Below, one piece after another: positions 301 through 33,811 of a DNA stretch of 41,844 nt. The notes under the pieces are model-generated. The model worked only from the letters and a program-made list of their open reading frames with translations. It made no database searches and was not told where the DNA came from. This DNA is from Rhizaria sp. SCN 62-66 (taxonomy: Eukaryota). The stretch is from contig MEDY01000286.1 in NCBI GenBank assembly GCA_001724265.1, positions 1-41,844 of the forward strand. Direction: 5' to 3'. The first letter of the stretch is position 1; every line of letters starts with the position of its first letter. The translations under genes and the position numbers were made by a program.

Positions 301-420
301 CTAAGAACAAAGAAGAACTGGTACAATATATATTTTAAAACGCTGGAACAAAAATACTATAACTATCATGTTTGCTTACTCAAATCAATCGAAATACTTC
401 TCACTTCTGCATTCACTCAC
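301..420 (-). other. Putative terminal intron of the coiled-coil gene (would add exon 264..300, ...NKFSLFLSSYAP-TAA)
   Basis: The apparent TGA stop lies in a consensus donor AA|GTGAGT. 120 nt AT-rich stretch ends in TTCTTCTTTGTTCTTAG. An alternative in-frame acceptor exists at 343. Confidence 0.45.
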
Positions 421-3400: not shown

Positions 3401-6400
3401 CCACGCCGGAGGCCACGGCGGGGGCCGGGACCGGCACAGGCGCGGCCATGTCCGAGAGCACCCCGCGGCGGCGGTTGAACGGCAGACGCGCGACGTCGAC
3501 ACCCTCCTTGGCAAGCGCAGTGACGTAGGCCGCCACCTCGTCCTCGAGCTCGGCGACGCGCTCGCGCGCCGTGTCAAGCGCGGCCGCCAGCGCGCGCTTA
3601 TCCTGCAGCAGCGTGGCGACCTCGGCGCGCAGCTCGTCAGCCACGGCCTCGGCCGCCACGCAGCGCGCCTCCAGCTCGCGGGCCGCGCGCTCCCACACGG
3701 CCTCGGCCACGCTGGGGTACGGCGCCACCGACGCGCCCGTGACTGCGCCGGCGGTCGAGGCGCCGCCGTTGAAGGACGCGTTGGGGTTGAAGGCCGGGTT
3801 GGCGGCGTTGAGGCCCAGCACGCCGCCGTGCGCAAGCGACGTGTTCAAAGAGTGAGCCAGCGACGCGGCGTTAACGCCCGCGCGGTGGCCGAGCTCCTCC
3901 TGCAGCTGCGCGATGTGCGACTGCAAGAACGACGTCTTCTGGCCGGCCTCGAGCTTCGACGCCTCCAGGTCCGCCTCGAGCAGCGTGTGGCGGCGGCGGC
4001 GGCGCTCGATCTCCTGCTGCAGCCCCTGCGTATGCGCAGTCAGCTCGCTCACGCGCTGCTGTGCCTCCGCCAGAGAGGTCGCGGCGGCGCGACGTTGCGC
4101 GGCCTCGTTGTCTTTGTCAACGCGCGCGCGCTCGGCGGCCTTCTTAGCCTCGGCGGCCTCTGCGCGCGCGGTGGCGGCGTCGCGCTCGGCGGCCTCGACG
4201 CGCTCCATCGCGGCGTCGTCGGCCTTGCCGTGCTCACGCTGCGCCGCGTCGAGAGCGGCCACAGCGTCCTGGCGCGCCTTCTCGGCGGCCGCGGCGGCCT
4301 CGGCCTTGGCGGCGAGCGCGCCGTCCAGCTCGGCCACGCGCTCCTCGAGCGCCTGCTTGGCGGCGATGAGCCGCGCGTGCTGCGATTGGAACGATTCCAT
4401 CTCCGCAACCGTGGCAGCCTCACGTTCCACGGCCGCCTTGGCGCGCGTGCGCGCGTCTGTGACCGTGGCGCCGTGCGTCGCCAGCTCCTCCGCCAGCGCG
4501 CGGCGCGCGGCCTCGACCGTCGACAGCTGAGTCTTGAGCGCAAGGATCTCGGCCTCGCGCTGCGTCTTGTCCTTGGTTAAAGTAAGCCTCTCACGGTCGA
4601 GTTCCTCGGCCTGCTCCTCAAACTTGCGCTGCTTGACCTTGGCGTTGTCCACGGCGGCGCGCAGCTGCGCGGCGGCCTTGCGGATCTCGTCGCCCTCCTG
4701 CTCGAGCATCTCCTTCTTGCGGCGCATGATCCAGTCCATGTCGCCGAACGAAGCCGTCTGCTCCTGCTGCTCGCGCTGCACCATCGCCTCGAGCGAGACC
4801 ACAACCTGCTGCATCTTGTGGATGTGGTTGTCCTGCATACGCGACCGCTCCTGCAGGTTGCGCACGTGGCGCGCGAGCCGGTGTGCGAGGTCGAGCACCT
4901 CGGCGGGGTCCTGACGGTCGACGATGTGCGTGTCGGGCGGCGTCAGCAGCTCCGCGCCCGGGATCACGGTGCCCACGCCGACGCCGCCGCCAGCGCTCGT
5001 GGCCGCAGGCGTCAGCGACATGGCCTTGCGGTACGCGGCGGCCGCCAGCCCGCCCTTGGGGGCCTGGCCCGCCGTGCTGCTGTTGAGCGCCGAGGCCGAG
5101 CTCGCGTTGAGCATCAGCTGCTGCTGCTGCTGTTGGGCAAAGGTCTCGTCCGGCTGCAGCGTGGTGCCCAGCTCCTCCTCGGCGGCCTCCATGGCGGCCG
5201 CGTCGGGGTAGCCGAAGGCGCGCGCAAGTCGCGTGCGCAGCGACTGCGCGGCGGCGTCGGCGTCCTTGGCCTGCCCGCGCAGCGCAGCCAGCTCGTCCGC
5301 CTTGGCGGTGATCTCGCGCGCAAGCTTCCCGATCTCGCCGCGCGCCTCCTCCTCGCCGGCGCGCGCCGCGGCCAGCGCCTGCGCGAGCTCGCGGCCCTGT
5401 TGCTGCTCGCTCGCGCACTGTAGCAGCGCCTCGGCGAGCCGTCCGTCGAGCGCGCGCGCGCCCGCGTGCGCCTCCTCGACGCGCGCCTCGGCCTGCAGCA
5501 GCGCGTCCTGCGCCAGCGCCAGGTCGCGCTGCGAGAGCGTGAGCCCCTTGTCGAGCTCGTTCGCGCGCCGCTCCAGCCCCGCGCGCTCCTCGCGTAGAGC
5601 GGGGATCTCACGCAGCGCCGCGCGCATGGCCTCGGCCTGCGCGGCGGCCTCAGCGCGCTGCTCGCGGAGCCCCGCCACGGCGTCCCGCAGCGCCGCGGCC
5701 TCCTCGTGCGCACGTTCCACGGCCCTCACCGCAGCGTCGCGAGCAGCGGCGTCGGCTGCGGAGCGCTCCTCGGCGCGCGCGGCCGCGGCCTTGGCGGCCT
5801 TGGCGGCGTCCGTCGCGGCGGCCGCGGCCGCGGTCGCGGTCGCCGCCTCAGACTGCGCGGCAGCGGCCTCGGCGCGCGCAGCCGAGATGGCGGTGTTGGC
5901 CTCAGCGCGCGTGTTGTTGGTCTCGGCAACGGCCGCGGCAGCCGCGGCGGCCGCGGTGGCGGCGGCGCGCTGCTGGTTGGCGGCCTCCTCCTCGGCGGCC
6001 GCGCGGTCCTCGGCGGCGACAGCCGCGCGGTCCTCGGCCGCGGCGACGCGCTCAAGCAACCCGTCGATTGCAGCATCGTACTTGGCCATCACACCGTCAA
6101 ATTTGCCTTCGGTCTCGCGCCGCAGCTCCGCCAGCGCGGTGTCGGAGCGCGCGCGCGCGGCCGCGGCGTCGCTCTTGGCCGTGGCAAGCGCGTCCTCAAG
6201 CACGGAGACCTCGCGCGCGGCCAGCTCGGCGCGCGACGAGAGCTCGATGCGCTCGGCTGCGAGCTTTGCGACCTGCGCCTCGAGCATGCTCGCCGTCAGC
6301 GCGCGCTCTGCCACGGCGTCGTAGTGCAGCGCGAGTTCGTCGTACTGCGCAGCGGGGACTACGCGCACGCCCGCGTACGCGCCGCCGCTCTGCTGCTGCT

Positions 6401-8201
6401 GCATGTGAACGCTGTTGTTGTTGTTGTTCGTAGCGAAGAACGACGAGTTGAGGCCGGAGCGAGCGAAGGCGCCGCCGGTGTGCGGAGACGCCATGCCGGG
6501 GCGCGGGAACGCGCCGACGCCGCTGCTGCCCAGAGCGTGACCGCCGGCAACAGCGCCAGCGCCAGAGCCAGCAGAGGAGCGAGCGCCGAAGGGCGTGGCG
6601 GGGGGCATGCCGGCGGCGCTGGTGCCGAGGCCGAGGACGCCGGCGCGGCCGGGCCCAAAGCTCGGCGTCGTGCCGTACGCGGCGGCGCTAGAGTCCGCGA
6701 AGTGCACCGCGGACGCGGGGTCGGCGGCGGCGGAGCGCAGCGCGTCGACCGTGGCCTCGAGACTGCGCACCGTCACCTGCAGCCGCGCGGCCTCGCCCTG
6801 CGCGCGCTCGCAATCGCCGCGCAGCCGCGCCGCCTCGCCGGCGGCCTCAGCGGCGCGGCGTTCGGCGGCTAGCACGGCGTCGCGGCCGTCGCGCGCGGAC
6901 CGGACCACGCGCTCTGCGTCGGCGGTCGCGCGCGCGGCGGCGTCGCGCGCGGCGCTGAGCTCGGCCACAAGCTCGGCCTCGCGCTGCGCGGCGCGCGCAG
7001 CCGCGCGGTCGCCGTCGGCGGCCTGCTGCGCGGCGCGGGACTCGGCCAATGCAAGCCGCGAGCTCAGCTCGCCCAGCCGCGCCTCGGCGGCCGCGGCGGC
7101 GCGCGCGGAGGCGTCGGCCCGCGCCTGCGCGCCGTCGGCAACGGCGGCGAAGTGGTCGCGTTCTGTCTGCAGGCGCGCGTTGAGCGCGGCGAGCTCGCTG
7201 TTCTGGCCCTCGAGCGCCGCGCACCGGGCCTCGAGCGCGAGCGCGTTGCTGCTGTTGGAGCCAGCACTCGTGAGGGTACCGGTGACGGTGACCGTGCTGC
7301 GCGAGGGAGGGACGCGGTCGGTCAGCGCGACGCCGAAGCTGCCCGCGCCGCCGCCGTAGCCCTGGTCGACGCCGGGGTAGGCGGCAGAGGGGCGCGAAGG
7401 GGTGCGGACTGCGGAGGCGGGCCGCGGCTGCTGGGAGTAATACTGCTGCTGCTGCTGTTGCTGTTGCTGTTGTTGCTGGTGTTGCTGCAGCAAAGACAAG
7501 CGGTGGCCGCCGTAGCCCTCGCCGTCGGCCCCGGCGGCCGCAGCCGTGGGGGACACTCCGGCAGAGTGACTCGTGAAGCGTCCGCTGCTGCTGCCGCTGA
7601 AGCCCGAGGCGGACTGCTGCTGCTGCTGCTGCTGCAGCTGCTGATGTTGTGACTGGAGCTGGAGGCGCGAGAGAGGCTCGCGGCGCGGGGACGCGGGCGG
7701 GGAGTAGCGCGAGCTGGCCGCCGCGGGCGAGTGCGAGCGCGATGGCGCGTTTGACCCGGCATTCCCGCCCGCGGCAGCGTTGGCGGCCGCCAGCGCGCGG
7801 GCGACGCGCAGAGGCGTCGAGAGCGCCTGAGATGCCGCGGGTGAGTGTGGGTGTGCGCCGCCGCGGAGCCCCGGGGATGCGGTAATGAGCGCGGCAACGC
7901 CGTGCGCGGACGAGGTGTTGCGGACTGTGGAGGTGAGCGAGAGCGTCTCCTCAACTTCTTCGGCGAGGGCGGTGAGCATATCGCGCTCGACCACGTCGTC
8001 GATGTCGTCGATGTCCGAGGACGCAGCCGAGGAGCCGGGGTTCGGGTACGTAGGGTCCGTCACCGTGCCCGCGGGACCGCGGGAAGGGCTAAGGGACATG
8101 GCGGGGGCGCAGGCGAGGGCGGCGCGGGGCGCGAAATCGGCAGAGAAAAGGCGGTTAGAGCTAGAGGGACCTGCGGTTTTTGAAGCGCCTCTGTGAAACA
8201 T
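417..8201 (-). CDS. Giant coiled-coil / low-complexity protein (~2594 aa) read through three in-frame TAG codons
   Basis: ORFs 2493..8201 and 417..1808 are in the same frame. The 1809..2495 gap is open except for TAGs at 2493-2495, 2118-2120 and 2061-2063, keeps exon-like composition (D/G/N/S-rich peptide) and has no AT-rich intron. Long A/E/R/L heptad-rich segment at about 3500-7240. The 3' end may splice (AA|GTGAGT at 420). Confidence 0.8.
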
Positions 8202-8929: not shown

Positions 8930-11900
8930 TTACTAACACTGCTCGTCGTCATCCACAGGCCTGAACTGGCCTTTGACCGCAGTCTCCCGCACCAGCCCGT
9001 CCTTCTCCAGACTCGCCAGCGTGGCTGCAATGTCCGCGCCTGAGACAAAGCCCGTCCTCAGTGCGCGCGAGACTCCGGCGGTTAAGGCACCGCTGCTGTT
9101 GCTGTTGCTGCTGCTGTTGACAGACACGACGCCCGCGGCCGCCGCGGTGGTCTTGACCGTGGTGGCAAGCCATCCGGACATAAGAATGGGCGCGTTCAAG
9201 TGCGCGCAGACGTCTAGAGCTGTGACGCCGTGTGTCAAAGTTAAGCCGGGGCGGGACTCCAAAATGAAGCGCAGAGCTGTGAGCACGAGCAAGCTGAACT
9301 CACTGCTCACGGTCGCTGCGGCGGTGGCGGCTGCAGCAGCTGGGGGCGCAGTAGCAACAATTCTCAGATCCGGCTTCACAGAAGCTGAAGCGGTGTCGGC
9401 GCCCGCAACCTCAGCATCTCGTGAGGACGACGCGGAATGTGCACCAGTGCTGCCTCTGTTGGCGCCAGCGCTGCTGCCACTGGCGTTATTGCTGGCGACT
9501 GGCGAAGGCGCCGGAACAACAAACTGTAAGTGCGTCTCCGCGGCCGCATCAGATGCAGGCACACTACGCGACTGCGACGGCGAGCGCGATTGTTGGCGAG
9601 ACTGCGGGCGCGGGCGGGCGGGCGACTGAGTGAGGGGCTGTAGCGACGGAGGAAACGGATTATCGTCTTCATTGTCAACGTCGCCCATCGCGGTCGCAGC
9701 AGCCCTCACTGCGGTCTGTGCCTGGACCTGCTCGGCGTCTGTCATAGCAACAGCCGTCGCACCGTGCAACGCGGCGGGAGCAGCAGTCGACGCGGCAGTC
9801 TTGCTCTCATCGCACACCTCACTCACGAGTGCGGTGACAGCCGCCGTGTCTGAAGCCAATGCAGAGCTGTTCACTGCTGTTGTCGCGGTGCTCGCAGCAA
9901 AGGCGGGGGAGCGGCGCGTGATCGGCGTCGCAACATGCGGCGCGCGGTTTGTAGCAGGTTCCAGCGCGGGCACGTGGAGTGACGACGACGACGACGACGA
10001 AGTCGTGACGTCGCTTGAGCCGGCAACGATGTCGACGTCGTTGTCGTCGTTCATGGCCCCAGCAGGGCTCGCATTAGTGGCGTTGTTTGTCGCAAAGCTG
10101 CCGAGACTGACTGCAGCGCGGTGAGCCCCACTGTTGTCCGTGCCGCCGTTGGGGCGCTGACTGGTGCTGGCGCTGTGGCCACTGGGGCCACTGTGGCCAC
10201 TGGGGCCACTGGGGCCACGGGGCGTCAGGGGGATGAGCGGCGGCGCAGGGGTCGAGCCGGAGCCCACGGTCATGCGGGCGTGCGACGCAGAAACGGGGGT
10301 GCTCACAGCGCTCGCACTCGCGCTCGCGCCTGCGGGGGCCGCAGCCGTGGCGTTCGGGGCATTGGCAGAGGCACCAAAGGCTGAGTAGATCGAGTGACGA
10401 GAGCTACTGCTCGGGCCGTTACCGCCGACAACAACGCCGCCGCTGCCACTGGTGTTCTTGCCCATAGCAGCGTAAATGCTCATGCCGCGGGGCCGCTGCA
10501 TGACGCCGAACTGGAACAGCGAGCTCTGGCCTCTGCCGGCGCTGCTGGGGGAGTGGTTGTGCGCAGGAGAACTGTTGGCGGCAGCCTGGCCAGTTGTACT
10601 GCTCTGTGACGCGCTTGTATGGGCATCAGATGCGGTCGCAGCCGTGCCAGTGCTGGTCGCTGCAACGGTCAGATCTGGTGCTGCCCCGCCAGCGACATCA
10701 GCAGCGCCAGTCGCATTGGCTGCAGCGGTCGCGGCGGCAGCAGCAGGGGGCGCGGCAGCCACGCAAACCGCGCTGTCCTGGTCCTGAGTGAAGCTGACCG
10801 ACGACGGGGCCGGCGGTGCGAGCATCCGGTGCGCCTTGAGGGCCTCGTCGACGTCCGAGTCGGAGTCGGAGCTCGAATCAGAGCTAGAGCTGGATTCAGA
10901 GGCGGGGGACAAAGCCGGTGCAGCCGCAGACAAAGGATCACTCGCCGCAGCGGTGTTGTTGTGGTTGTTGCTGCTCGCACTGGCGCCGCTGCGGGTGCGG
11001 GAGCTAGCTGCAGCGTCCGCCGCAGCCGCGGTGTTATTGCTTGAGGCAGGAGAGTTGCTGCGAGTAGCGCGACGGTTGCTGTCCGCCGCAATTGCAGCAT
11101 TCGAAGGCAAATTGTTCGAGGCAGTTGCGACGTTGGCTTCGGTCTTGATGGCACGCTCTGCGCGCGGAGTCCGAGGCCTGTTGTGATTGCGCGTCCCTGC
11201 AGCGGCTCCATTGGCAGTCGCGGCGGCAGTGGGGTCTGGCTTGACGAGGGCAGCGCTATCGTCGCCGGTCCGGGTGTCAACGCTCTCATTCGCGGCACTG
11301 CTCGCGCTTGCGGCGTTGAGGCGGGTGTGGCTGCTGCCGTTGGCGTTGAACTTGACGCTGACGCTCGTGCTGATCTCGCTCGGTAGCTTCGCTTGATGCT
11401 GCGTGCACGACTGGCTTGTTTGCGGCAAAACGCGGAGACGCGACGCCACCGTGTCCGCGACCGCAAACCCGGCGCCGGCCCCGCTGATCGTGCTGCCGCC
11501 GGCGCTGTTTGGGCCAGCGTTGATGCGGGAACGCGACGAGAAGGTCGGGATGGAGCCGGGGCTGAGCGGCGTGTCGAGCAGGTCAGTGACGTACTCGGTC
11601 ACGCTGACTCCCAGCCCCGGGGTCCCTGCGCCGCGGCCGCTGTTGCTCTTGCTAGAAGTGGCCACACCAGCGTCAGTGGTGTCTGCGGCGCGTGTGGAGG
11701 ACGAGTCGGTCGCAGTCGCCGTCGAGCCTGGGCCGCGCGAAGCGACGGGGGCGCGGGCGGGTCCGTGGGGACTCTGCCCAGCAACAGCGGCGCCAGCCGT
11801 AGCGCTGGCGGAATCAGCAGCAGCTGGTGTGCCGAAGTGCGACAATGTGGAGCGAGTGCGCTTCGAGACGGGGGTGATCAGAGCGGCCGCTGCGGCGGCA

Positions 11901-13148: not shown

Positions 13149-14512
13149 ATGTCGGGCTCGCGCGCCGAAGAAGAGGAGCAGTTCCGCGATTTCTTCCGTA
13201 AGTCGGCGCGGATTGCGCCTCCGTCTGCTGCGCCTGCACCAAGGCTCCCCGACATTACGCTCGACACATTCGCCGCGTCCTTTAACGCCGAGACCCCCGC
13301 TGTGTCTGGCCAGGCCGGCGCTAAGAACCCGTTGCCAACCACGTCAGCCCTCGGCCCCAAGAAGGGTCTCGCGCTGCCCTCGAAGAGAAACGCATCAGCA
13401 ACCAATACAGCCACTGGCAACGGTGTGTCCAAGGCGGACGCTAGCGCTAGCAAGGTTGCATTTGACATGGAGCTCGTGGCGGAGACCTGGACCGAGCTGA
13501 GCTACAGCTTCCCCACCCTCACAGTCGCTGGGCTGGTGAACCTCGCGCGCTACCTCCAGCACCACTTCGGCGCGCTCAAGGCACTGCCGCCGCGCGCCGA
13601 CGGCGTCGCGCTCTCCACCGTTGTGCTTACGAACCTTGTCCGCGTTGCCTCTGCGCCCCGCACCGGCGCGGGCGCGAGCGCGGGCGCGAGTGCTGTGGCG
13701 GCGAAAACGCCCGCGAGCGGCACAGCTGTTGCGTGTGTTGCTGGCTGTAACGACGGCGCTCGCCTCGCTGCTGCTGCGGCCCGCGTGCTGCGCGCGCTTG
13801 CAGTCAGCAGCCTCCCCGCGCTGCTGGCGAGCGACCGTGAGCAGCTGAGCCGTTTCTGGGGCAACGTGGACCCCGAGGCGCTCGCGCTCGCGATGGCACA
13901 GAGCGTGGAGGACGCCACCTCTGCGGCCACGGCCGCCGTCACGGCCGCGAATACGGCCGCGGCTGCTGCGTGGGCTGGGGTGGCTGCTGCGGCGACGACG
14001 CCAGTAACGCTGAGCTCACGGTCAGATGCTGCAGACCGGGTGATTGCGTACAGCGCGGAACTCGCGTCGCCAATCGTCCCACATCAGCAGCAGCTACACT
14101 GCTCCCAGTTCTTTGGTCCGATGCCCCCCGGCGACGCCGCCGCCGTCCAGCGCAACGACGGCAGTAGCGCGGGGGAGCGCGGCCACAGCAGCAGCAGCAG
14201 TCTCGCCCGCAACGGTGGTGCTGCCGACAATAGCGACGGCGTTGACGATGGTGGCGAAGATGTTGCTGTTGTTGCTGTTGAAGGCAAGAACGATAAAATC
14301 AAGGACCGTCACGCTGCGGCGCTTGCACAGTCGGGAGCGCGCGTGCTCGTGCTGCCCCCAACTCGCGGCCGCAACAGCAACACTGTCAGCAATGGCGGGG
14401 ATAAGTCGTGTGGCCGTCGAGATTAGAAGAAACCGAGTGATCGTGACAGCGACTGCGGTGACTCTAGCTTCAAAGGTGAAGACGGTAGTGACGGTTATGG
14501 TAGCTATGGCAG

Positions 14513-14549
<37 letters not shown>

Positions 14550-17375
14550 AACATCTCCGCTGACGGCGACGATCATCGCGGCGGCGAGGCTGATGACGAT
14601 AGTGATGACGGGTTTGGTGATGTCAACTACGAAGACAACAGTGACGACGACGATGGCGAGGGCTATTTCACAGGCATTTCCAAAATCATCAACAACAACA
14701 AGCCCTTGAACTCCTCGAAAACTGCATCCGCCTTTGTGAGCACCGCAAGCCCCAGTGTGCCTCAGAGTGACCGCGACCCCGGGCTGCACTCCTGGGCTGC
14801 CCACGGTCGCCGGCTCCTGTCTCTCCTGCGGCTATGGGCACACCCGATTGCTCTTGGCTTCCGCTTACCCGCGTGCTTAGACTATGACATCGACGCCGAA
14901 ATGAAGCCGCCAGCGCCAAAGGTCGACACGCCTGCGACCAACAGCAAACCCTCCGCGACTGCTATGACTGAGCCTGAGCAGGCGTGGGTTGCGTACAGCG
15001 GTGTCACTGCGGCCTCACTTGTGTCAATGGTACAAAACCTGTTCCACTCGATCAGCGACGCCGCAGCCACGAACGCGCGCCTCTCCAAGGGTACCAGCAG
15101 CGGGCGGGAGCCCGAGGCACTCCGCCGTTGCTTAGTCAGCGCCGCCCCCTCTGTCAGCGCGCACGACCAGCGGCCTGAGCCAGAGTTGGCCGCCGCCGAG
15201 TCGGCCGCCGCCCACAGCCGGAGTCCTTGGCTAGTGACCGTCGACGTGGAGGAGGTTCGCGAGCTCACTGTCACTCTCCTCTCCGGCGCCCTCTCTCAGT
15301 CGCTGGCGCAATCAGTTGCGCGTGCGGGTGCGCAATCATCGGTGACGAGTGCAGTGACCGCAGCAGCCGTGACTGCAGACGCAGCCGTGGCTGTCCCTGC
15401 CGCGGTGCAAGCTCTGTCAACGATGCTGATGGTCACTGCTTCTGCGGCGACTGTTACTACGACAAATGAAGCGCCCTTAACGCAGTCAGGTGCGGTGCCA
15501 GCTGCTGTAGAGCGGTTCTTGTCCGTGATTAAGAGCAGCTGTGACCGCGCGCTCGCTACAGCCGCGGTAAGCGACACGAACGCGGTCGCTGCCAACGCTG
15601 TCGCCGAGGCGCTCGCTGCTGCGAATGGCCTCGCGACCGGCGCCGGTGCCAAGACTGTGAGCACCTCGAGTGCCATTGGGAACCGCTGGGGTGAGGAGTG
15701 CGCGTGGACCGCGCTTGCTGCCATCCACAACAACAGCAATAACAAGAACAGTCGCAAGAATCTCAGTTCGACGGATTTCAACATCGCATCTGGGGCCTCA
15801 CTGACGACAGGTGCTGCGGCGGCAGCGGCGGCTCTTGCGACGGCGCTGACTTCGCAGTCGTCTGCGGCGCGCGAAAGCGGCCTGGACTGCGCGTGGGTCG
15901 GTGAGCTCGTACGTTCCGTCTCGGCCGCGCTGCCCTCGCCGGTGCTTGCGTCGCTGCTGTTGGCAGTCACGCGCAGCGTTGTCGACGCAACACCTGTATC
16001 CGTGACTGCGGGCGGCGACGGTGACGCGGACGATCGCAACTACTGCCCCCGCATTATGGACTGTGCAACAGCCGCAAATCATACTATAGTGTCGTATCTG
16101 TCGCTGTTCCGCACGGTTTCTGCTACTGCTAGCCCAAGCGACTGCGAGCAGATCATCGATGAAGTGAGTGCAGACTGGACGGCACCGATTCCCACTCCGG
16201 TGCGTCCAGTCGATAGCCTCAGCCTGAGTGGCGGCGAAAATGTCATGACCGAGACGAGTGTGGTTGCAAGGCTCATTGAGTTATCTATTTCGCTCACATT
16301 CGCGATCAAATCAGTTGCTCAAACGATGACAACTCCTCCTGCCGCTATTGCTGCTGGTAACAAAACGTCCGAGTCAACGGAGATTCAATGCGCAGCCAAT
16401 GCCCTCAACAGTGATGCTCGCATGGGCATTCACGCTGCGCAGACCGCCCTTGCGTCAGTGTTGCGCCTCTTAGCTTGCCTTGCTGCGCACAGCTCCCAGG
16501 TCCTCACTGCTTTAGCAGCAACGCCCGTTGTATGGTCACTCCTTACGCACACGCCAGCCGCGACGACAGCGCTGCTATCGCCCGAGTCTCCTCTCACAGT
16601 CACCGATCTCCTTGCGTGGTTGTCGCTCGCCGACTCTGCTGCAATTGCTGCTGGGTCAAAGTCGCAGCTTCTACTGTCGGAGAGCGCTCTCACGATGGCG
16701 ATTGCAGCTGGTCTCGCCACAGGCCAAGCCGAAGCACAGGCCGCGGTTGATGCCGAGCTTGACGCACTCCTGGGCGACCTCTCTGACGACGAAAAATGTA
16801 CCGGTCAGACCAAGACGCAGGGATCAAGCGAAAGCTCTCTGGGAAAGGTTGCTCCTCCTTCTTATGTCACAGCATCGGTTGCTGCGCTGCGCAACGTCGC
16901 TGCTGCTGGCGTCGCTCGCGCTATCAGCGACGCAGTGACTACGACCACAGCGGCGGCGACCAGCGACTCGGCTGGAACTGCAGCAGCCATTCCGACTGCG
17001 CAGACAGTCTGGGCCGCGGTGAGCGCTGCAGTGGCCGCTTTAGTCGCTGTGATCAAGGTCCCGCACGCTGAACGCACGGCGCTGCTTGCTGCGATGCTCG
17101 CTGACAGCCATGGATTTGCTACGGCAGCAAGTGATGCTTCAGTAACTGCTGGCAGTGTATTACATAGCGCGATGCGGACGCTGAGCAATGCCATTGCAAA
17201 GACAGCTAACGCGTCGGCGACGGCCACTGCATCTAAGACTGTAACGCAAAACGATATTTCAGTTGCGACGTCCAAGGTGGCAGGGGGTGACGGCGGTGGC
17301 GACCAGCATCCGAATGGCGGAATGCTGCTGACCTATCATGTATTGTGTAAGGTAGTGCGCGCTCGGTGCGACTGA
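13149..17375 (+). CDS. Uncharacterised Ala-rich helical protein (~1408 aa) read through one in-frame TAG
   Basis: ORFs 13149..14426 and 14706..17375 share a frame. After TAG 14424-14426 the frame stays open as an acidic linker (KKPSDRDSDCGDSSFKGEDGSDGYGSYGSGDDDDDDDDDDDN...) into the second ORF, which has only a TTG start. Ends at TGA. Confidence 0.8.
14517..14549 (+). repeat. (GAC)11 microsatellite, poly-Asp in the post-TAG frame
   Basis: Eleven perfect GAC units, in frame with the read-through CDS. Confidence 0.9.
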
Positions 17376-17575
17376 GCATCATTTTCACATGTGTGAATAC
17401 ACTCTCATCAGATCTCAGTTGGACAGTTCTTCAAAAATGAAATGTGACGGTGTGCTCATATGAAATCATTGAGTGTATTTGTGATCAATAAAGAATTGTA
17501 AGATGTTTACAGCGATGTCATGATGGAAGTCACGTTGAATCATTCTTTCTGCTCCTTTGTCCTTGGTGTCGTGAC

Positions 17576-17576
<1 letters not shown>

Positions 17577-17624
<48 letters not shown>
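17577..17624. repeat. (TCA)16 microsatellite, = (GAT)n on the minus strand
   Basis: Sixteen perfect TCA units followed by degenerate TTA/TCA/TCG/TTG triplets. Confidence 0.95.
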
Positions 17625-17625
<1 letters not shown>

Positions 17626-18118
17626 TATCATCGTCGTTGTCGTTGTTGCTAACCTTAATAGAATACGTATCATGTGAAGAAATGCACAAAACTAATTTGC
17701 GAAGCTCGAAATGTATTGGAGGGGAAAGAAAATCGATAAAAAGAAATATACATATTCATGATATGCGAATTGTTCAAATACATATTCCAGAAAATGTCAT
17801 TATGACAATATAGCCTCCTGCTTTGTTCAAATCATCAATGTTGTAAGCAAAGGTCAACCAATATTCATAATAATACTGTATCAACAAGGAGTTGCACCAG
17901 CAACAATTGAAGTTGAACCCGCAATCTTCACGTAATAAATAAATAAATGAATACAAGTTCTTGAATCCAAACCGATGCAGCAAAAAAGCTGCGTCAAAAA
18001 CTCGTCCATCGGATAACAATAGCTCTGCATCGTACAATCAAACACAACAGCAAAAACAGCAACTCACAAGGCGTTAGCCATATACTAAGAGCGCGCGTCG
18101 TACTACAACAGCGCCAGC

Positions 18119-21100
18119 TTACTCATTAGCACTGCCCTTAGTCTTGCCTTTGCCCCTCCCTTTGCCTTTGTCCTTGGTCTCCTTCGCAGTGGCGGTCGCC
18201 TCGGCAGTCGCAGCGCTGGCCGCAATCGCCTTTTCGCGCCTTGCCAGCGCGAGCGCGGCCTTGTGCTGCTTGCTCGTGAGCTTCAGCACGTCCCTCTTGG
18301 CCTTGCGAGCCGCACGCAGCATGTCCTTCAGCGAGCGCGGCGCGAACGCGGCCGCGAGCAGCGGCGCCCACTGCTGCAGCCGCTGGGCGCGCTCCCACGC
18401 GTCCCAATGTGGCGCCACTCGAGGCTCAGTCTGCCTCGCGTTAGCAACTGCGGCGACAGTATCCGTGTTAGCACCGTCGGCGTGGCTGTTGATGCTGCCA
18501 ACGCAGCTGCTGGTAGGAGGGAACGGCTCGCAGTGCGTGACCGGCATCGCCAGCCCCGCGCCCGCGGCGGGGACCCACCGGCCCGCGCCGCACACAAGCG
18601 AGGCCAGCGCCGCCGCGCGCGACAGCTGCGGCCACACCGCATCGCCGGCGTCAGTGCCAGCACCCGTGGACGGGTGCGAGGGTGCGTACAGAGAAGCGGG
18701 CGTCGCCGCGGCGCTACGGAGCCGGCGCATCGCGGGCGCGCAGCCGGCCACAGCGGCCACAGCCTCGCGCCGCCACTGCGCAACGCGCTCGGCACCGCTA
18801 GCGCCAGCGCCAGCGCCAAAGACACCACTGGCCACGAGATCAGCAGTGCCAGTGACGTCGCCATCACCCTCTTCCTCCGCGTCAGCGTCAGCGTCAGCGT
18901 CAGAAGCAGGAGCAGCATGACGAGTTGTTGCAGCAGCATCGTCGCTGCGCTGCGCCGGCGTCTGCGCCTGTGCCTGCACTTGCTCAGGCCTGTCATAGCG
19001 CGCAATCATTGCGAGCGCGGCCGCCTCGGCCTGCGCCCGCGCGCGCGCCGCCGCCCGCGCCGCGCGCGCCGCGTCCTTGGCCGCCGCGCGCGCCCGCAGC
19101 CGCGCCTCGGCGCCGGCGGCGGAGTCTGCGGCGGCAACGAGCGCGCCCGCCTTGAGCCAGCCCTGCCGCAGCGTGTCTGCGCAACGCACAGCGTCGCCGC
19201 CCCACCACACCGACCAGGACGCCGCCAGCACGCCCGAGCCGGGGAGCGTCGTGACACGGTACGCGGGGGACGCCGCCGACGCGGGTCTGCCTCTCGCGGC
19301 AGGCGCGGCAGTGGCGGTCGCAGTGGCAGAGCTGACGGCTCCATCTTGGGGTGTAATCGCGGTCGACTCAGCAGGATGTGATTGAGAATGCGACTGTGAC
19401 CGAGACTGAGGTTGCTGCTGCTGTTGCGGTTGCAAGCGAGGTTGATTCTGTGTGGAATTATACAGCTTGTCACCGGTCGCATTGGTGAGATCGCTGTTTT
19501 TGTTATTGAAGGAGCGCGCAGATGCATTAGGCCGACTGTTATTGTGCTTGTTATTATAGCTCCGGGTGGTATTGTCATTACTGTTGTTGTAGCTGCGCCT
19601 GCCATTGCCATATGCGTGATTCCCTACCGGAATCGATTCATCACCGGCATCGTGAGCACCAAACCACGCCGACGTCGGAGACAGCGACGCTAGCACAGCC
19701 GCGGACGACGAGAACAGCAAGTTCGAACTCACGCCATGACTGCTGCTCACAGCCACTCCCGCGCCAGTGTGTGCGCCCGTGCTCGTGCCCGTACTCGCCC
19801 CCAGGCTCGCGCCAGTGATTGTGCTGCCGGACACCGCGGCCGCCGCAGCCCGGAGCGCATGCTTGCGCGACACGGCGGGCGGCGGCACGCACACCGCGGC
19901 GCCCAGCGGCCAGCGCGGGCGCGGACGTAGCGCCGCGGGCAGCGACTGCAACAGCTCCATCTGAGACTGCGACGGTGTTTGTGACTGTGGCGCTTTGTTA
20001 TTGTGAGCGTAGAGAGGGCTGTTGCGCGGAATGGCGGACAGGCGCCACAGCGCACGCGTCATCTCGCTCTCCCGCACACAGTCACTCTGCTGCTCACGGT
20101 CGACGCTCTGCTCACGGCCACTCGCCACCTCGGCCCTAGCGTGCGCGGCGGCGGCCCAGGCAATCATGACGCCGTTGTCGGTGCAGAGCGCGCGCGGGGC
20201 CGCGGCGGTGACGAAGCCCCAGTGCGCGGCCGCGCGGGACACGTACTCGCGCAGATAGCCGTTGGAGGCCACGCCGCCGCACAGCAACAGGCGCCGCGGT
20301 GCAAGGGGGCTCGCCAGCGGCGGCGGGGACAGCGAGAGCACGTTGCGGGGGGCAGCGCTTGCATCGTCAGCAGCGTCATCGTCAGCAGTGCTTGTGATGT
20401 TGCGAGCGCCGCTGTTGTTGTCACCGGCGACGTTGTCGCCCGAGGGGAGCGCGCCTTCAAGTACTTGAAGCGAGCACGCAAGGCGGTGCACGAAGTGGCG
20501 CGCGACCGACGACTGCACGCTGTGCGCGAACGAGAGCTGGAACAGGGGCGACAGCAGCGCCGCGGTCTCTGCCTCAGTTGTCACGGCACTGATAGGCGCA
20601 CTGGTACTGGCACCCGCACTCGTCGTATTGTTGTTGTTGTTGTTGTTGTTGTGGAGCAGAGCGTCGACGTGCAGCGAGTGCGCGAGCGCGCGCCACGCCG
20701 ACTGCGAGGCCTGCGCGGCCGCAAGCGCGGACCCGGGGTGCGCGGACGCCAGAGCCGGGTGTGTGTAAGCGCCATCCGCAGTGTACGTGCCGTCAGCGCC
20801 GCCAGTGCTGCTGTCATTAAGGTTGTCGCGGGCGCGGGCCAAGGAGGCGGACACTGCGGCGGCATCGGCGGCCACGGCGCGGCGGGCGGCGGACTTCATG
20901 CCTGAGAAGGACAACGCGGTGTAGCCTGTGGTGCGGAGTGAACATAAAAATCAATACAGCGAAGATAGGTGGATAGTTCAGTTTAATTCAACATGAAATG
21001 CCTGTTTGACTCAATGTGTCTTATGATTAAGTTCGTCCCGACAGTGAAGATGAGAAACGTACCCAAACCCGCACCGGAGCCGGAGCCGGGGAGCGGCAGG

Positions 21101-23415
21101 GGGATGTCGACGAGCGGCAGCAGCGGCGACAACGGCACACGCGGCCGCGGCGGCAGCGGCAGCGCGGCGGCGACGGGCAGCCGCCACTGCTGGAACAGCG
21201 GCCAGTCAGACTCGCTGTCGCGCTGCTCGCGGTCACTCGTCTGCCCACGGTCGCTTGTGGCGGCGAGAGTGGGCAGGGGCGCGGCCTCAGGGGACTGCGA
21301 CACGGCAGCGAGTGGCGACGCCACGGGGGTCAACACGCCGCGCCAGGCCGCGGGACCGAAAAAGTCAACATCAGCAGCAGCAGCATCTGTGCTGCCCTCG
21401 GCGACCGTGCTGCCATCAGGGTTCTGCTGGGGAGCAGTGACGCAACCGGCGAGCAGCGCAGCCACGCGCGTGTGCCAGTGCGCGGCGCGTTCCAGAATGG
21501 CGCCCGGTGGCAGCACGGCGGGCTTTGCCGTCGCAGACTCGGTCACAGGGGCCGCTGTCGCCGCAACGCCGGTGTCGGCGCTCGCGTCGTGGCTCTCGGT
21601 GCTGTAGTCGTCTTCGTAGTCGAACCCAGCGTCCGCAGCGTTGCCGTTATCGCCCGCAGCGCGGGGCGGCGGCAGCTGCGGCAGTGCCTGGAGCCGCTGC
21701 ACGAGCTGCAGGTTGCGCCACTCGAGCCACGCGCGCACCGCGCTCGCGCCCGCGCCCGGCTGCAGCGCCCACGGGCTGGCCTCGGCGTCGACCGCCGCCG
21801 CCACAGTCTCTGCCGCCTCCGCGGCAGACGAGGCAGTGCTTGTGTCCGGTGTCGGTAACTGCGGTGCACTCGCGTCGGCGCCGAAGCGTGTGAGCGCGCG
21901 CCTGCGGTGCCAGTGCCTCTGCTCGCGCGTGGCCTCGAGCGCGCCCAGGTCGCGCGGATACACCGTAAAGGGCGAGGCGGGCGCTGACGGCAGCGGGGCC
22001 GCGGCAGGGAACGAGGCCGGCAGACGCGCGTCCGACAGGTGCGGCCATAGTAAGGACGCGGGGGGCGGGGCGGCGCGAGAGGCAGGCTGTGACTGGCGCA
22101 AGTGGGCAGTGAAGGCGGCCCACACGGCGGCAGGCGTCGGCCCGCAGCTGTCACCATCGCTACTGTTGTTGTTGCTGTTGTTGTTGTTGTTGCTGTTTGG
22201 CGTCGGGTGCAGCTCCTTGGGCAAGTACTTAAGTGGGAAGCACTCTGCGCTAGCCTCACCGACGCCGACGTCAGCCGCCTGCCGCGCGCGGAGCGCCTCC
22301 TCGGCCTCGACCACGGCAGCAATTGCCGCGAAGTTAAGCCGCGCGAGCCCGCCGACGCGGCACGCCTTGTCGAGCGCCTCGCCCGCGGCATCGTCGAGCG
22401 TGGTCGCGAGCACGCGGTGGCGGCCCGGCGCCGCGGCCCACACCAGCTGCGAGTGCCCGCCGCTGGCCACGAGCGCCAGCGCAGGCGTCGCCGTCAGCGG
22501 GGACAGCGGCCGCGGGGGCAGCGAGCGCGCCACGGCCGCTGCGGACGCTGCGAGCGCGCTGCTACTGTTCTGACCAGCCGCAGTGCTACTGCTGCTGCTG
22601 TCATTAGCAGCCATGGCCGTAGCGACGGCGGCGGCGGCGGTGGGCGCGGCCAGCTCGGGGGCCAGCTGCGCGACGAGCGCGTGCGCCTCGACGTGGTTCA
22701 CACCTAGCAGCGGCACGCCCCAGGCGAGCGCGAGGCGCGCCGCGGCGGCCACGCCGACCGAGAGGCACGGCGCGAGCCCGGGACCGGAAGCCACCGCCAC
22801 CGCGTCCACCGGCACCGAGACAGGGACAGGGGGCGACGAGGGCGCGGTGGCTGGACTTTGGGGGAGTTGAGGGGCAGCTGCGGCCTGCGTGAGCGCGCGT
22901 GCGACGACGGCGCCGATGTGTTTCCTGTGCTAGCGCGCCGCGACCGAGGGCATGACGCCGCCGAGCTGCTCGTGGATGGGCCACTGCGAAAGCAGCGAAT
23001 GCGCGCGCAGAGAGCCGTGCGTGGTGAGGACGGCCGCCGCGGTCTCGTCGCAGGAGGACTCAATGCCCAGAATCACCGCGGGGCGAGAGGCAGCAGCAGC
23101 AGCAGCAGCATGGGCAGATGTTGATGCTGAGGCGGAGGAAGCAGATGTGGAGGCGGAGGTAGAGAAGTAGCTGCGAGAGTTGATGTTGCTGTTCCGATGT
23201 CCAAATGAAGTGACTGCAGCTGAGTGCGAGTGCAGCTGAGAGGGTAGATGGGGGCCGTATTCAACCGCGCGTTGCGCATTTGAGGCTGTATATGCATTTG
23301 CAGAAGCAGCAGCAGTCGCCGCAGCAGAAGCGGATGCAGAGCAGGCTGAGGCCGCTGCGGCGGCGGCAGGCGCAGTCACGGAGCGAATGCTCGCAAGCCT
23401 GAGCATTGCCGACAT
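18119..23415 (-). CDS. OSGEPL1: Mitochondrial-type tRNA N6-threonylcarbamoyltransferase (Qri7/OSGEPL1, TsaD/Kae1 family), ~1719 aa; exons 23415..21063 and 20925..18119; one in-frame TAG
   Basis: Family motifs appear in order: LGIESSCDETAAAV, GGVMPSVAAR*H, AVASGPGLAPCL, NHVEAH, LVASGGHSQL, TLDDAAGEALDK, PGAILE, LSFSGMKS, LCGGVASNGYLR, CTDNGVMIAW. The N-terminus (MSAMLRLASIRS...RSYFSTS) resembles a mitochondrial presequence. TAG at 22930-22932. Confidence 0.92.
20926..21062 (-). other. Spliceosomal intron (137 nt, phase 1) in the Qri7-like gene
   Basis: G|GTACGT...CACCACAG|GC, AT-rich. Splicing restores the frame into GYTALSFSGMKS. Confidence 0.9.
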
Positions 23416-23889
23416 GCGCGCCAGGTCAACTCAGCTAAAAATATGGAGTGCTGTTGTCTTTAAAGCTGCGAGTTCAGGATATTACTACTTGGGGAGTGAG
23501 AGAGCGAGTGCAGCGAGCGATTGTTGAGAGATGGCCGGAGAAAGAGGGGAGTGAGTGCAGAGAAACTAAAACAGAAAACCAAGAGATATAAAAAGAAAAT
23601 ACAATGTAAATTCACGCATTGAATACTGGCGAACGTAATAAACTGATGTTGACGATCAGTGTCGCAATCTGGATCAAATTTCCTGTCGCAACGTTGGTGG
23701 GTTGCGAGAGTACCGTCGGCGAAGAGGATTGAGAAGTCCAATGATAATATCGCCCAAATTAAACGTATGTGGGGATTGTTTCGTTTAATCTGGCTTGAAT
23801 TGATATGCCTCATATTTGATTTGAAATAATCGTTCTTTATCTTGCGCTTAGTCGAGTTCACAGCTACTTTACATCGAGACTTCTTTCCG

Positions 23890-26055
23890 ATGTCTGCCCG
23901 CTCTCTGCCACCCGGCACTGCGGCCGCGACCCCGACCGCCCCTGTGCTGCCCATCGCCGCAACTGCACGTCCCCGCTTGCCTGCCGCCGCCCGTGGGCCG
24001 ATGTACGACCCGTCTTTTTACGCTGACGCGATTCGCGAGCACTTCTTGAGCGAATCCTCGTCGTCATCAACCTCTGCCTCAGCCACCAGCTCGGTCCCTG
24101 TGTCGGCGACTACGGTCGGCGCGGCAGGCTCGCCGGTGGCAGCGACTGCTGACGGCCTATTTGGGCGCAGCGCGTTGGACACCGCCGCGGGTGCTGGCGA
24201 TGACGACAATGACAATGACGATACGGAGGCCTCCCCTTGTGGAGCGACGACAGTGTCTGTTCCAACGGGGGGCTCCTCCATCACGACTGGCGTTACTGCC
24301 CGAGCAGCGGCTGTCTCCGCGTCCTCCGTATTGTCGGCTTCTTTTCTGACGTCTTTGTCATCCCTCTGCGCCCGTCCCGCCCCCGCTGCTGCATCTGCTG
24401 CGACAGGCGGCAGCACGATCACCAACTCTAACAGCAGCAGCAACAGCAGCAACAGCAGCAGCATCAGTAGCAGCGTTGGCGCCGGCGACATGCGGGTGCG
24501 CGAGCGCATGCTGGCGCGCATGCTCAAGCGCATTGACAGCAACGGCGACGTGAACATGGATCCGGACGCAACTGCACTCCCGCACAGCAGCATGGGCGTG
24601 TACGGCTCGATTCGCAGTCACGCTCTGACGCACAGTGACACGCACACGCACACGCACACGCACACAGAGCGCGTGCTGCGGGGCTTCATCCCCACCGACA
24701 GCGAGCGCGACAGCAATTGCGACGATGACGACGATGACGATGATGAAGATGGGGGCTCCTCGAAGTCTAAGTCGAAGGCTAACCAGTATGCAGACAGTGA
24801 GTTTGCCCCAATCGATCCGCTGCTGCTCCTTTCGTCAGGCGCAGTTGCCACTGTCGCTGAGGCGGAGGCAGCAGTTGCAACGGCAGCAGCTGCAGCTAAG
24901 AGTAAGATCAAAAGAAAGAGCAAGGGCAAGAATGGTGAGAACAAGATCACTGTGGTCAACGGTGCGCTTGCACGCGAACTCGTGGGCATCAGTACCGTGA
25001 TTGATGTTGCTGCTGACGAAGAGGAGTACGACCGTGAGCAGCTCCAGCAGCAGCTGCAGCTGCAGCAGCAAGGTGCATGTGAGCTGCTGCAACAGGCTGA
25101 CGACGAGCAGCTGCTACTTGGGGACGGTTCCGCGGCAACTGCAACTGCAACTTTGCCGGCGAATGTCGACAACGTTGTTGCTAGTAGCGGCAGTGTCAGT
25201 GATAGCTCTGTTAAGAGGCTGCCGTCAATGCTGACTCAATTTGCAAACGCCACTGCGAACAACAACACAAAGACACCTGCGAGTGCGTATACTGAGTGTG
25301 TCACGGTGGAAGAGACTGGCGAGATTGCGATTGAGCAGTGGAGCAAGGCCGACTTCGACTCGGACTCTGAGCCTGCCGGCGATGCCAGTGCAAGCAATAC
25401 GGGCGTCAAGACTGACGACAACAATCACACTGCAGAGTCAGAGGCGACCGCGGTGACTGAGAGCGCTGTAGGTATCGTGGGACAGGAGCAGACAGAGCAT
25501 TCCGCGGCTACGCACAGCAGCAATAACAACGAATCTTTCTTGCCTGGCGCCGCTGAGACCGACTCTGACTCCCACTTGCAAACGCAAGGCACGAACATTG
25601 CCTCTAGCAGCAACAGCAACGACGCCGATAGTGCAGATATCGAGGAAGTGGCTGTGGACAGCGCCGCGCACGAGCGCATTTCGTACAGCCAGCGCGCGCA
25701 CGCACGCGCACAGGCCCGCGCACAGCACAGCTGCAACAGTAGTGACACTGGAGTGATTCAGCGCAATGGCCTGTTCCCCGAGGTCGCGGCCGCTGAGGCG
25801 CTCGGGCTCGACGCCTACCCTGACAACGACGGTGGCGCCAATGAGAGCGCCGCTAATGCTGCCACGGCAACGGCACTGGGCGAAGAAGAAAGCGAGGTTC
25901 TCGGGGCCGGGCTGACTGCGGAGGAAGCTGTGACGCGCTGGGCTGGGGGCGCGGGGGCGGGGCCGCTGACGCAAATCAAGCTGGCAGGCGATGAGAATGA
26001 GGCTGAGGAGGAGGATGACGAGGCGTTCTTGGACAGTTTGTTCAAAATGGGATGA
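23890..26055 (+). CDS. Uncharacterised acidic low-complexity protein (~721 aa)
   Basis: First ATG at 23890 at the start of GC-rich sequence, open to TGA. Poly-D, poly-S, HT and Q tracts. C-terminal EEEDDEAFLDSLFKMG. Divergent from the Qri7-like gene. Confidence 0.75.
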   Translation: MSARSLPPGTAAATPTAPVLPIAATARPRLPAAARGPMYDPSFYADAIREHFLSESSSSSTSASATSSVPVSATTVGAAGSPVAATADGLFGRSALDTAAGAGDDDNDNDDTEASPCGATTVSVPTGGSSITTGVTARAAAVSASSVLSASFLTSLSSLCARPAPAAASAATGGSTITNSNSSSNSSNSSSISSSVGAGDMRVRERMLARMLKRIDSNGDVNMDPDATALPHSSMGVYGSIRSHALTHSDTHTHTHTHTERVLRGFIPTDSERDSNCDDDDDDDDEDGGSSKSKSKANQYADSEFAPIDPLLLLSSGAVATVAEAEAAVATAAAAAKSKIKRKSKGKNGENKITVVNGALARELVGISTVIDVAADEEEYDREQLQQQLQLQQQGACELLQQADDEQLLLGDGSAATATATLPANVDNVVASSGSVSDSSVKRLPSMLTQFANATANNNTKTPASAYTECVTVEETGEIAIEQWSKADFDSDSEPAGDASASNTGVKTDDNNHTAESEATAVTESAVGIVGQEQTEHSAATHSSNNNESFLPGAAETDSDSHLQTQGTNIASSSNSNDADSADIEEVAVDSAAHERISYSQRAHARAQARAQHSCNSSDTGVIQRNGLFPEVAAAEALGLDAYPDNDGGANESAANAATATALGEEESEVLGAGLTAEEAVTRWAGGAGAGPLTQIKLAGDENEAEEEDDEAFLDSLFKMG
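24631..24666 (+). repeat. Coding (CACACG)n repeat (His-Thr dipeptides)
   Basis: Encodes HSDTHTHTHTHT. Confidence 0.75.
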
Positions 26056-33026: not shown

Positions 33027-33811
33027 TCACGTGCTCTGCTGCGGGGGAGCGTCCGTACCGGCGACCCCGAACTTGGCCTTAAGCGCGGCCAGCTCCGCCA
33101 GCCCGGCCTCCACCTTGGCGCGGCCCTGCTCGACCTTGCCCGCCGCGCTCGCGCCCGCGGTGGCGGCGGCAGCGGCGGCGGCGGCGGCGTTGCGGGAAGG
33201 CTTGAAGTAGACGACGGTGAGGTAGCGGCCGTCGACGTTGAAGCCATTGAGCCCGTCGACGGCGGCGCGCGCGTCGTGCACGTTGTCGTACACTACGTAC
33301 GCGCGGCCCTTAGACGAAGGGCCGTTGCCCCTGTGAAGTGAACGCGTTAGAGAAACAAAGAGGAAAGAGACGGCGGGAATGTGAGATAGCGACAAGGAAG
33401 AAACAATATGTGAAGACAGTAGACTGTCGAGATAAAACCAACATAAACCTTTGGATTACAAGTTATTTTACAAAAATAACTGAGAATATGCCTCATTTCA
33501 GGACAATGTGATGTGAGATATGCAGTGTAAGTGAGTTGGATGGACTTACATGCGGATCTGGCGGATGATGCCGAAGCGGCCGAAGAGGGTGTACATGTCC
33601 TCGCCGGAGTAGTTGAACGGCAAATGTTTGATAAAGAGAATACGTGACGCGTCAGCAGGGAGCTGTGGTTGGCGCACACTCTGTAGTGGGAGCGTGGTAT
33701 GGAGCAAAAAGAGGCGAGAATGAGTGAGCGAAGGCAAGAGAAAGTAGGGCGACGGAAGATCGGCGGATTGAGGGCGAGACGTACCATGCCAGTATGACCC
33801 AAAGAGTTCAT
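33027..33811 (-). CDS. SF3B6: Splicing factor 3B subunit 6 (SF3b14a/p14), RRM, 153 aa; exons 33811..33785, 33680..33550, 33330..33027
   Basis: Spliced product LPADASRILFIKHLPFNYSGEDMYTLFGRFGIIRQIRMGNGPSSKGRAYVVYDNVHDARAAVDGLNGFNVDGRYLTVVYF...LKAKFGV is colinear with p14. Both introns are GT-AG and frame-restoring. Ends TGA. Confidence 0.95.
33331..33549 (-). other. SF3B6 intron 2 (219 nt, phase 2)
   Basis: AT|GTAAGT...CTTCACAG|G joins RQIR-M-GNG. Confidence 0.93.
33681..33784 (-). other. SF3B6 intron 1 (104 nt, phase 0)
   Basis: ATG|GTACGT...CCACTACAG|AGT, pyrimidine-rich. Supplies the ATG that exon 2 lacks upstream of the RRM. Confidence 0.8.

Follow-up and report, generated by a model that had tools for sequence, protein, structure and literature searches.

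In the contig MEDY01000286.1 of Rhizaria sp. SCN 62-66, a 41,844-nucleotide stretch which we call the window and analysed as a whole, a gene of the TsaD/Qri7 type is interrupted by an in-frame TAG at codon 162. In this organism UAG is probably a sense codon, with UAA and UGA still used for termination. Sense decoding, which a first-pass annotation had proposed for this site, is supported by the integrity of the gene, by conservation that is equal before the TAG and after it, by enrichment of synonymous changes behind it, by four more internal TAGs in the window and by the lack of gene ends formed by TAG alone. The window carries nine long gene models on both strands with AT-rich spacers between them, and its GC content is 0.51-0.75 per 2 kb. 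These models, together with a STE20-type kinase bearing a PX domain and with spliceosomal introns, mark the window as eukaryotic nuclear DNA; its host is an uncultured, GC-rich, intron-poor eukaryote of wastewater and bioreactor communities.

The minus strand at 22965..22915 was read again as GGC GGC GTC ATG CCC TCG GTC GCG GCG CGC TAG CAC AGG AAA CAC ATC, identical to the earlier reading, and its translation is GGVMPSVAAR*HRKHI. The TAG is thus placed inside the GGVxPxxAxxxH motif, as the first-pass annotation had it (coordinates of this and other features are collected in Table 1). Under the standard code the open reading frame (ORF) from ATG 23415 stops at codon 162 and leaves 161 amino acids, again in agreement with that annotation. 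The further claim that one residue at the TAG gives the spacing of the family was borne out by phmmer comparison with Protein Data Bank (PDB) chains, where the TAG faces one residue of solved TsaD structures. The gapless alignment sets 'ggvmpsvaarxhrkh' against 'ggvvpevaarhhlkn' of Thermotoga TsaD, where His faces the TAG, and against 'ggvvpelasrdhvrk' of the Salmonella/E. coli type, where Asp does. The aligned stretch spanning the TAG comprises residues 115 to 258 and scores 64.7 bits. The TAG in the TsaD motif is real, and the resemblance is far beyond chance. A location of the TAG within an intron was considered and rejected: no GTAMGT donor lies within 400 nucleotides upstream of any internal TAG in the window, and the Qri7 alignment runs without gaps across the TAG.

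The gene consists of two exons with a spliced coding sequence of 5160 nucleotides (1719 codons and a TAA stop). The TAG at codon 162 is its sole internal stop, and the frame is open only if this TAG is sense. Past the TAG, the frame of exon 1 closes at TAA 20983-20985, inside the predicted intron. All motifs downstream of the TAG are intact, as the first-pass annotation had stated, but not all of them stand in the frame that runs on from the TAG: SFSGMK, GGVASN and CTDNG, the C-terminal motifs of the family, are absent from this frame and belong to exon 2, which is the next minus-strand ORF in a different frame. Removal of the intron joins both frames, and homology to the relatives restarts two residues past the splice junction (YTALSFSGMK). 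The intron is predicted from sequence, phase and homology; among the RNA contig matches listed, none contains the joint.

TsaD, Qri7 and OSGEPL1 are tRNA-modifying enzymes, namely the t6A37 threonylcarbamoyltransferases of the organellar or bacterial type. The Pfam TsaD profile PF00814 matched exon 1, searched with the TAG read as X, with 115.9 bits and exon 2 with 32.5 bits at a cut-off of 24.8. A TsaD hidden Markov model built from 60 homologues gave 221.6 bits on the spliced protein and matched profile positions 3-180, 211-230 and 264-325 of 339. The motifs of the ASKHA fold (GIESSCDET, SGGHS, DDAxGEAxDK, SFSGxK, GGVAxN) as well as HxxxH and CTDN are all present, in order, in the spliced protein. 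We take HxxxH to be the metal-binding site and assume a role for the aspartate of the C-terminal CTDN, in keeping with the structure literature on TsaD/Kae1. Comparison with the five closest full-length relatives revealed further blocks: LPPGAILERAA, a helix with FQ..H, and a C-terminal RW.

With 1719 amino acids the protein is about five times as long as bacterial TsaD (about 340 amino acids; the yeast protein has about 400). Low-complexity inserts of about 430 amino acids between the DK motif and SFSGxK and of about 185 amino acids before GGVAxN account for part of this length, together with a C-terminal extension of about 665 amino acids without a Pfam match. The three closest relatives (621-779 amino acids) have smaller inserts at the same positions. 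The N-terminal extension of 113 amino acids is rich in Ala, Ser and Arg and looks like a presequence by eye only. Among PDB chains bacterial TsaD gave a better E-value (3e-25) than yeast Qri7 (6e-15). Membership in the TsaD family is firm, whereas the narrower label of the first-pass annotation, the mitochondrial Qri7/OSGEPL1 clade, is presumptive.

Is the part of the gene behind the TAG still maintained? The 1557 codons past the TAG hold no further stop and no frameshift, and the intron is in phase. The majority residue is kept in 21/27 conserved columns before the TAG and in 79/103 after it, counting those columns in which five relatives show at least 80% conservation, so conservation is not relaxed downstream. 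A comparison of strains was possible with a 2025 run (X4) and a polyA RNA run of the same study (X5), whose strain differs from the window by about 0.5%. Positions are listed for 40 of the 64 strain differences; the estimates use the listed ones only and ignore transition bias. Downstream of its TAG the Qri7 gene has 13 such differences, seven synonymous and six not; downstream of its own TAG the gene model g3 has 19, ten synonymous and nine not. The pooled fraction of synonymous changes is thus 17/32 against 26% expected (P 0.0012), and the crude ratio of nonsynonymous to synonymous substitution rates (dN/dS) is 0.31 in each of the two genes.

The first-pass annotation had named dN/dS behind the TAG and a possible second intact copy among the points on which its proposal should be judged. 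The former shows the low ratio and the synonymous enrichment just given. As to the latter, no closer intact paralogue was found in two protein libraries (5.8 and 1.84 billion proteins), where the best non-self match is 56% identical. Reinitiation past the TAG was also considered. Translation could restart at codon 268 at the earliest, this being the next Met; the HxxxH site (241-245) would then be missing, and no active enzyme could result.

The same phenomenon is seen in other genes of the window. Internal TAGs number five in 11,241 in-frame codons, about 0.4 per 1000 codons, and occur in three of the nine gene models (three in g1, one in g3, one in Qri7). The same 11,241 codons contain no internal TAA or TGA, a result partly circular for models which were defined by reading through TAG. 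A non-circular test is given by the GC content of the flanks and the number of open codons, and these separate the internal TAGs from the true gene ends. After each internal TAG the GC content is 0.52-0.81 and the same frame stays open for 547-982 codons, with the first ATG 6-158 codons away; each true end leads into an AT-rich 3′ flank, with the frame open for 0-91 codons. In the first 150 nucleotides past the true ends GC is 0.33-0.47 at seven of eight; at the remaining one, g7, it is 0.62 and then 0.35 at 150-300 nucleotides, a distance at which g6 has 0.47 and g8 0.68. The coding signature of high GC at third and low GC at second codon positions carries on past the TAGs in the same frame. 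The eight gene ends use TGA six times, TAA once and a tandem TAG-TAA once (g2), and no model ends in TAG alone. The tandem of g2 may be a safeguard that followed the reassignment of TAG, or it may show that TAG still serves as a stop to some degree. The g1 model, of 2594 codons and coiled-coil-like, has its three TAGs within 145 codons (2061-2495, minus strand), and two of the three share the context (C)G(A/C) TAC TAG, i.e. R-Y-TAG.

Table 1. Features of the TsaD/Qri7-like gene and other TAG codons in the window
Feature	Position	Strand	Remarks
In-frame TAG, codon 162 of the TsaD/Qri7-like gene	22932..22930	minus	gapless alignment to homologues
Motif GGVMPSVAAR-TAG-H, residues 152-163	22962..22927	minus	alignments to TsaD chains and homologues
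Exon 1, ATG 23415	23415..21063	minus	N-terminal extension of about 113 residues, TsaD motifs, then low-complexity insert of about 430 residues
Motif GIESSCDET	23067..23041	minus	exon 1
Metal site VNHVEAH, residues 239-245 (HxxxH at 241-245)	22701..22681	minus	exon 1
Motif SGGHS	22464..22450	minus	exon 1
Motif LDDAAGEALDK	22398..22366	minus	exon 1
Predicted spliceosomal intron, 137 nucleotides, GTACGT...CACAG, phase 1	21062..20926	minus	sequence, phase, homology
Exon 2, ending in TAA stop 18121..18119	20925..18119	minus	carries three C-terminal family motifs
Motif SFSGMK	20911..20894	minus	exon 2
Motif GGVASN	20278..20261	minus	exon 2
Motif CTDNG, residues 1032-1036	20185..20171	minus	exon 2
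Internal TAG 1 of g1 (gene 417..8201)	2493..2495	minus	then 691 open codons; GC of next 150 nucleotides 0.69
Internal TAG 2 of g1	2118..2120	minus	in frame
Internal TAG 3 of g1	2061..2063	minus	then 547 open codons
Internal TAG of g3 (gene 13149..17375)	14424..14426	plus	then 982 open codons
Tandem TAG TAA at the 3′ end of g2 (...TGT TAG TAA)	8930..8935	minus	only TAG at a gene end

Runs from bioreactors, wastewater and activated sludge, spanning several years, contain DNA of the window. In runs from three years (X1-X3), 93-99% of the sampled words of a 6-kb stretch were found, and X2 and X3 show two differences from the window in 11 kb; their listed pieces end at 22885, short of the TAG. A polyA-metatranscriptome contig (X5 record 29, 22784..23017) spans the TAG site. 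The ORF product P0002, of 610 residues, is recorded from six contigs; it begins with the first start codon to follow the TAG. Standard-code gene callers yield this product only if the upstream frame is interrupted, which supports the base call indirectly and suggests that the interruption is present in all six. The TAG of g3 is kept in the second strain, where X4 record 15 covers it and all four differences of this record are placed elsewhere.

Several points weigh against UAG as a sense codon. Of the five TAGs, four are found in low-complexity, unalignable sequence without a Pfam match, and only one stands in a column that is conserved and can be aligned. Internal TAGs are rare, being limited to five in 11,241 codons and to three of nine models, and in the phyllopharyngean ciliates, a lineage with reassigned UAG, excerpts of PMC11687900 give internal UAG for 78-91% of genes. 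Random nonsense mutation in these codons would produce TAG in 65-68% of cases, and five TAGs out of five then have a probability of 0.12-0.15. The absence of TAG alone from eight ends is a small sample. Within the 41,844 nucleotides of the window neither a tRNA (ARAGORN) nor any Rfam family was detected, and eRF1 is not among its genes. At the codon itself, X4 record 22 (22875..24000) spans the TAG with seven differences, five placed elsewhere and two unlisted. The X5 contig over the site has one mismatch, whose position is among the unlisted differences. Plus-strand T>C is one of the five X5 change types without listed positions; if it fell at 22931, UAG would become UGG.

The rarity of tolerated TAGs (five in 11,241 codons, three of nine models) would also agree with leaky termination without reassignment, in which UAG is formally a stop but is read through by a near-cognate or weak suppressor tRNA. 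One TAG does stand at a real gene end, directly before the TAA of g2, and the Qri7 TAG has C at +4, a readthrough-prone base. However, the five sites have no common context (+4 bases G, A, G, A, C) and no stable structure is predicted around or downstream of them (z-scores +1.17, +0.54, +0.36, +1.12, -0.84). Readthrough would be costly for a presumably essential organellar enzyme, and g1 would need three such events in series, so we regard leaky termination as rather unlikely. A recent nonsense mutation, GAG>TAG or CAG>TAG, would make the gene a pseudogene, a strain-specific or heterozygous null, or a redundant copy truncated at 161 amino acids. Glu is present in five of the six closest homologues and GAG is a single step from TAG; random nonsense in this codon usage is mostly TAG, and both contigs spanning the codon, from X4 and X5, carry unlisted differences. 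Such an allele is nevertheless quite improbable in view of the 1557 downstream codons without stop or frameshift, the intron intact and in phase, the conserved columns kept equally (21/27 and 79/103), the crude dN/dS of 0.31 downstream, the like behaviour of g1 and g3, the post-TAG ORF on six contigs and the lack of a close second copy in two protein libraries.

Restoration of the message by RNA editing is a very unlikely explanation. It would convert the genomic TAG into a sense codon in the mRNA, for example by A-to-I change to UGG (Trp) in the style of filamentous ascomycetes. According to excerpts of PMC11156358 and PMC10776026, fungal A-to-I editing prefers U at -1, often in UAG, and premature stops are restored by it in dozens of genes. 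As in these fungi, a genomic UAG here interrupts an otherwise intact conserved ORF, and it has, trivially, the favoured U at -1; the unlisted mismatch of the X5 contig and the T>C among the five unlisted X5 change types point in the same direction. In contrast to the described cases, in which the edited A is placed in a hairpin loop, no stable hairpin is predicted at any of the five TAGs (z -0.84 to +1.17), and Trp never occurs at the TAG column in 203 + 138 homologues. The known system is restricted to the ascomycete sexual stage, and nothing places the host among ascomycetes. Divergence between strains would by itself account for one mismatch in 234 nucleotides. A sequencing or assembly error could be suspected in a metagenome assembly with 24 of 64 difference rows lacking listed positions, but is extremely unlikely, as X1-X3 hold 93-99% of the 6-kb words, X2 and X3 differ twice in 11 kb, the post-TAG ORF stands on six contigs, and the four other TAGs behave alike. 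Hopping of the ribosome over the TAG is conceivable, but one residue would then be lost from a spacing which is conserved in all aligned homologues.

If UAG is a sense codon, as we consider probable, it would, on the model of described cases, be decoded by a tRNA with CUA anticodon in combination with an eRF1 that recognises UAG less well. Codon 162, TAG, would then be an ordinary, rare sense codon supplying the residue between Arg and His of GGVxPxxAxRxH, and the full enzyme of 1719 amino acids would be made, with HxxxH, SGGHS, DDAxGEAxDK, SFSGxK, GGVAxN and CTDNG. The insertion of an amino acid by the ribosome, this mechanism and the residue considered next are what we infer from the observations above.

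Which residue may UAG encode? In 203 of 208 homologues from word-indexed searches the TAG column contains E (82), A (44), Q (25), S (24) and K (12), and more rarely N (6), R (4), D (3), H (2) and M (1). In 138 of 147 matches from the exhaustive search it contains A (66), E (29), K (13), S (9), Q (7) and R (4), and more rarely N (3), D (2), G (2), T (1), Y (1) and C (1). Neither Trp nor Leu, the latter given by the first-pass annotation for human OSGEPL1, was found at this column in the 203 + 138 homologues. The column is thus variable, as that annotation had stated. Its conclusion that the column cannot identify the residue has to be softened, since five of the six closest homologues have Glu. 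The word-indexed protein searches gave no Qri7 relative above 41% identity in either of two length classes, and the exhaustive search reached relatives of 49-56%; a scan of metagenome contigs gave only TsaD genes of 33-46% identity among the 80 loci listed, which do not include the contig of the window itself. The three best non-self matches (P0330, P0331, P0332; 49-56% identity) all have Glu, in AAREH or AVREH. They come from metagenome contigs, one of 445 kb, and share inserts at the places of those in the window protein. P0334 and P0336 have Glu at the TAG column as well, and P0333 (Paulinella micropora, EukProt) has Ser.

Glu in the closest homologues, with GAG one step from TAG, makes Glu the likeliest ancestral residue at this column. 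As to what UAG means at present, should it be sense, Glu has about the same credibility as Gln, and one column cannot decide between them. Gln is the commonest precedent for a reassigned UAG and a conservative replacement. Leu, known as the meaning of UAG from a rhizarian and from ciliates, is disfavoured by the column and is less likely. We put forward, as a doubtful but possible reading of these comparisons, that UAG encodes Glu while UAA and UGA still terminate, in an unsampled eukaryotic lineage whose nearest protein relatives are metagenome sequences of 48-66% identity. Such a code has not yet been described, and its reassignment would be at an early stage, with low usage of UAG. To our knowledge, UAG has been assigned to Glu only alongside a reassigned UAA (peritrich ciliates, Blastocrithidia, one oligohymenophorean). 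No description of a code in which UAG alone means Glu was found in the literature searched.

Some neighbouring parts of the window deserve mention. Upstream of the Qri7 gene, a 335-nucleotide RNA contig covers the AT-rich divergent spacer between Qri7 and g5 (23513-23847), which may reflect long 5′ untranslated regions or a DNA component of the RNA library. Among the contig matches listed for the polyA RNA run, none covers the convergent 3′ spacer (17037-18137) that separates g3 from Qri7. A gene for an RRM protein with three exons is situated at 33030-33810 on the minus strand, and the RRM_1 profile is split across its second intron. The introns of this gene are bounded by GTACGT..ACAG and GTAAGT..ACAG, like the pattern of the TsaD/Qri7 intron, and the small protein presumably resembles spliceosomal SF3B6/p14. 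The fusion of a STE20-type kinase with a PX domain occupies 36942-40142 on the plus strand. Its nearest relatives are metagenome proteins of 66, 58 and 48% identity with the same architecture, one of them on a 188-kb contig, and they suggest a small unsequenced clade of related organisms. Searches of protein clusters for taxonomy gave only generic PX clusters and a single named organism, Paulinella micropora for one match, which is too little for placing the host. One locus (L081) from the kinase-PX scan of genome contigs was bacterial-looking, with dense same-strand ORFs and even GC, and was dropped. The segment 40154-41844 is AT-rich with short coding-looking pieces; its longest open frame has four TAGs in 244 codons, there is no recognisable gene, and it is probably intron-rich or non-coding.

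Codes in which UAG is sense and UAA and UGA are stops have been described, in excerpts of PMC5304391, for the rhizarian exLh (Sainouroidea, Leu) and for Iotanema spirale (Fornicata, Gln). The same excerpts give 384 and 204 in-frame UAGs in 71 and 126 genes of these organisms, and UAG is never a terminator at 71 and 119 gene ends. Like these two, the window has an in-frame UAG in a conserved gene, and UAA and UGA are the sole true terminators, here at eight ends. Unlike them, as far as those excerpts go, it has five TAGs in three of nine models, with one conserved column instead of many; its DNA is GC-rich, and the closest homologues suggest Glu, not Leu or Gln. The genome of the sainouroid Rosculus vilicus, unlike the window, has a GC content of 37.7% in excerpts of PMC10770858.

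The chromosomes of the phyllopharyngean ciliate class are gene-sized. In contrast, the contig of the window is recorded with up to 205,739 bp and has spliceosomal introns. In these ciliates, according to excerpts of PMC11687900, UAG is translated as Leu or Gln, suppressor tRNA(CUA) genes are known from two genomes, and UAA is the main stop in addition to the frequent internal UAG mentioned above. The window resembles them in the probable reassignment of UAG alone, and their code, like the one proposed here, was mined from metagenome-assembled genomes (PMC11687900); it differs in that TGA is the main stop (6/8) and internal TAG is rare. A description of an organism such as our host was not found in the literature searched. 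The window is probably a further case of the known type of code with UAG alone reassigned; if the residue is Glu, it would be a new variant of the code.

Changes of the nuclear code are rare, and those in which UAG changed and UAA was kept as a stop were unknown until 2017 and are still few, as excerpts of PMC5304391 indicate. If our reading is true, such a change would have had an independent origin in a GC-rich, non-ciliate lineage from wastewater metagenomes, and the very low usage of UAG could show an early or weakly used reassignment. Gene calling with the standard code splits genes of this kind: in a public protein collection Qri7 is the 610-residue fragment starting past the TAG. Annotation, binning and completeness estimates of such eukaryotic contigs would then be wrong until the code is recognised.

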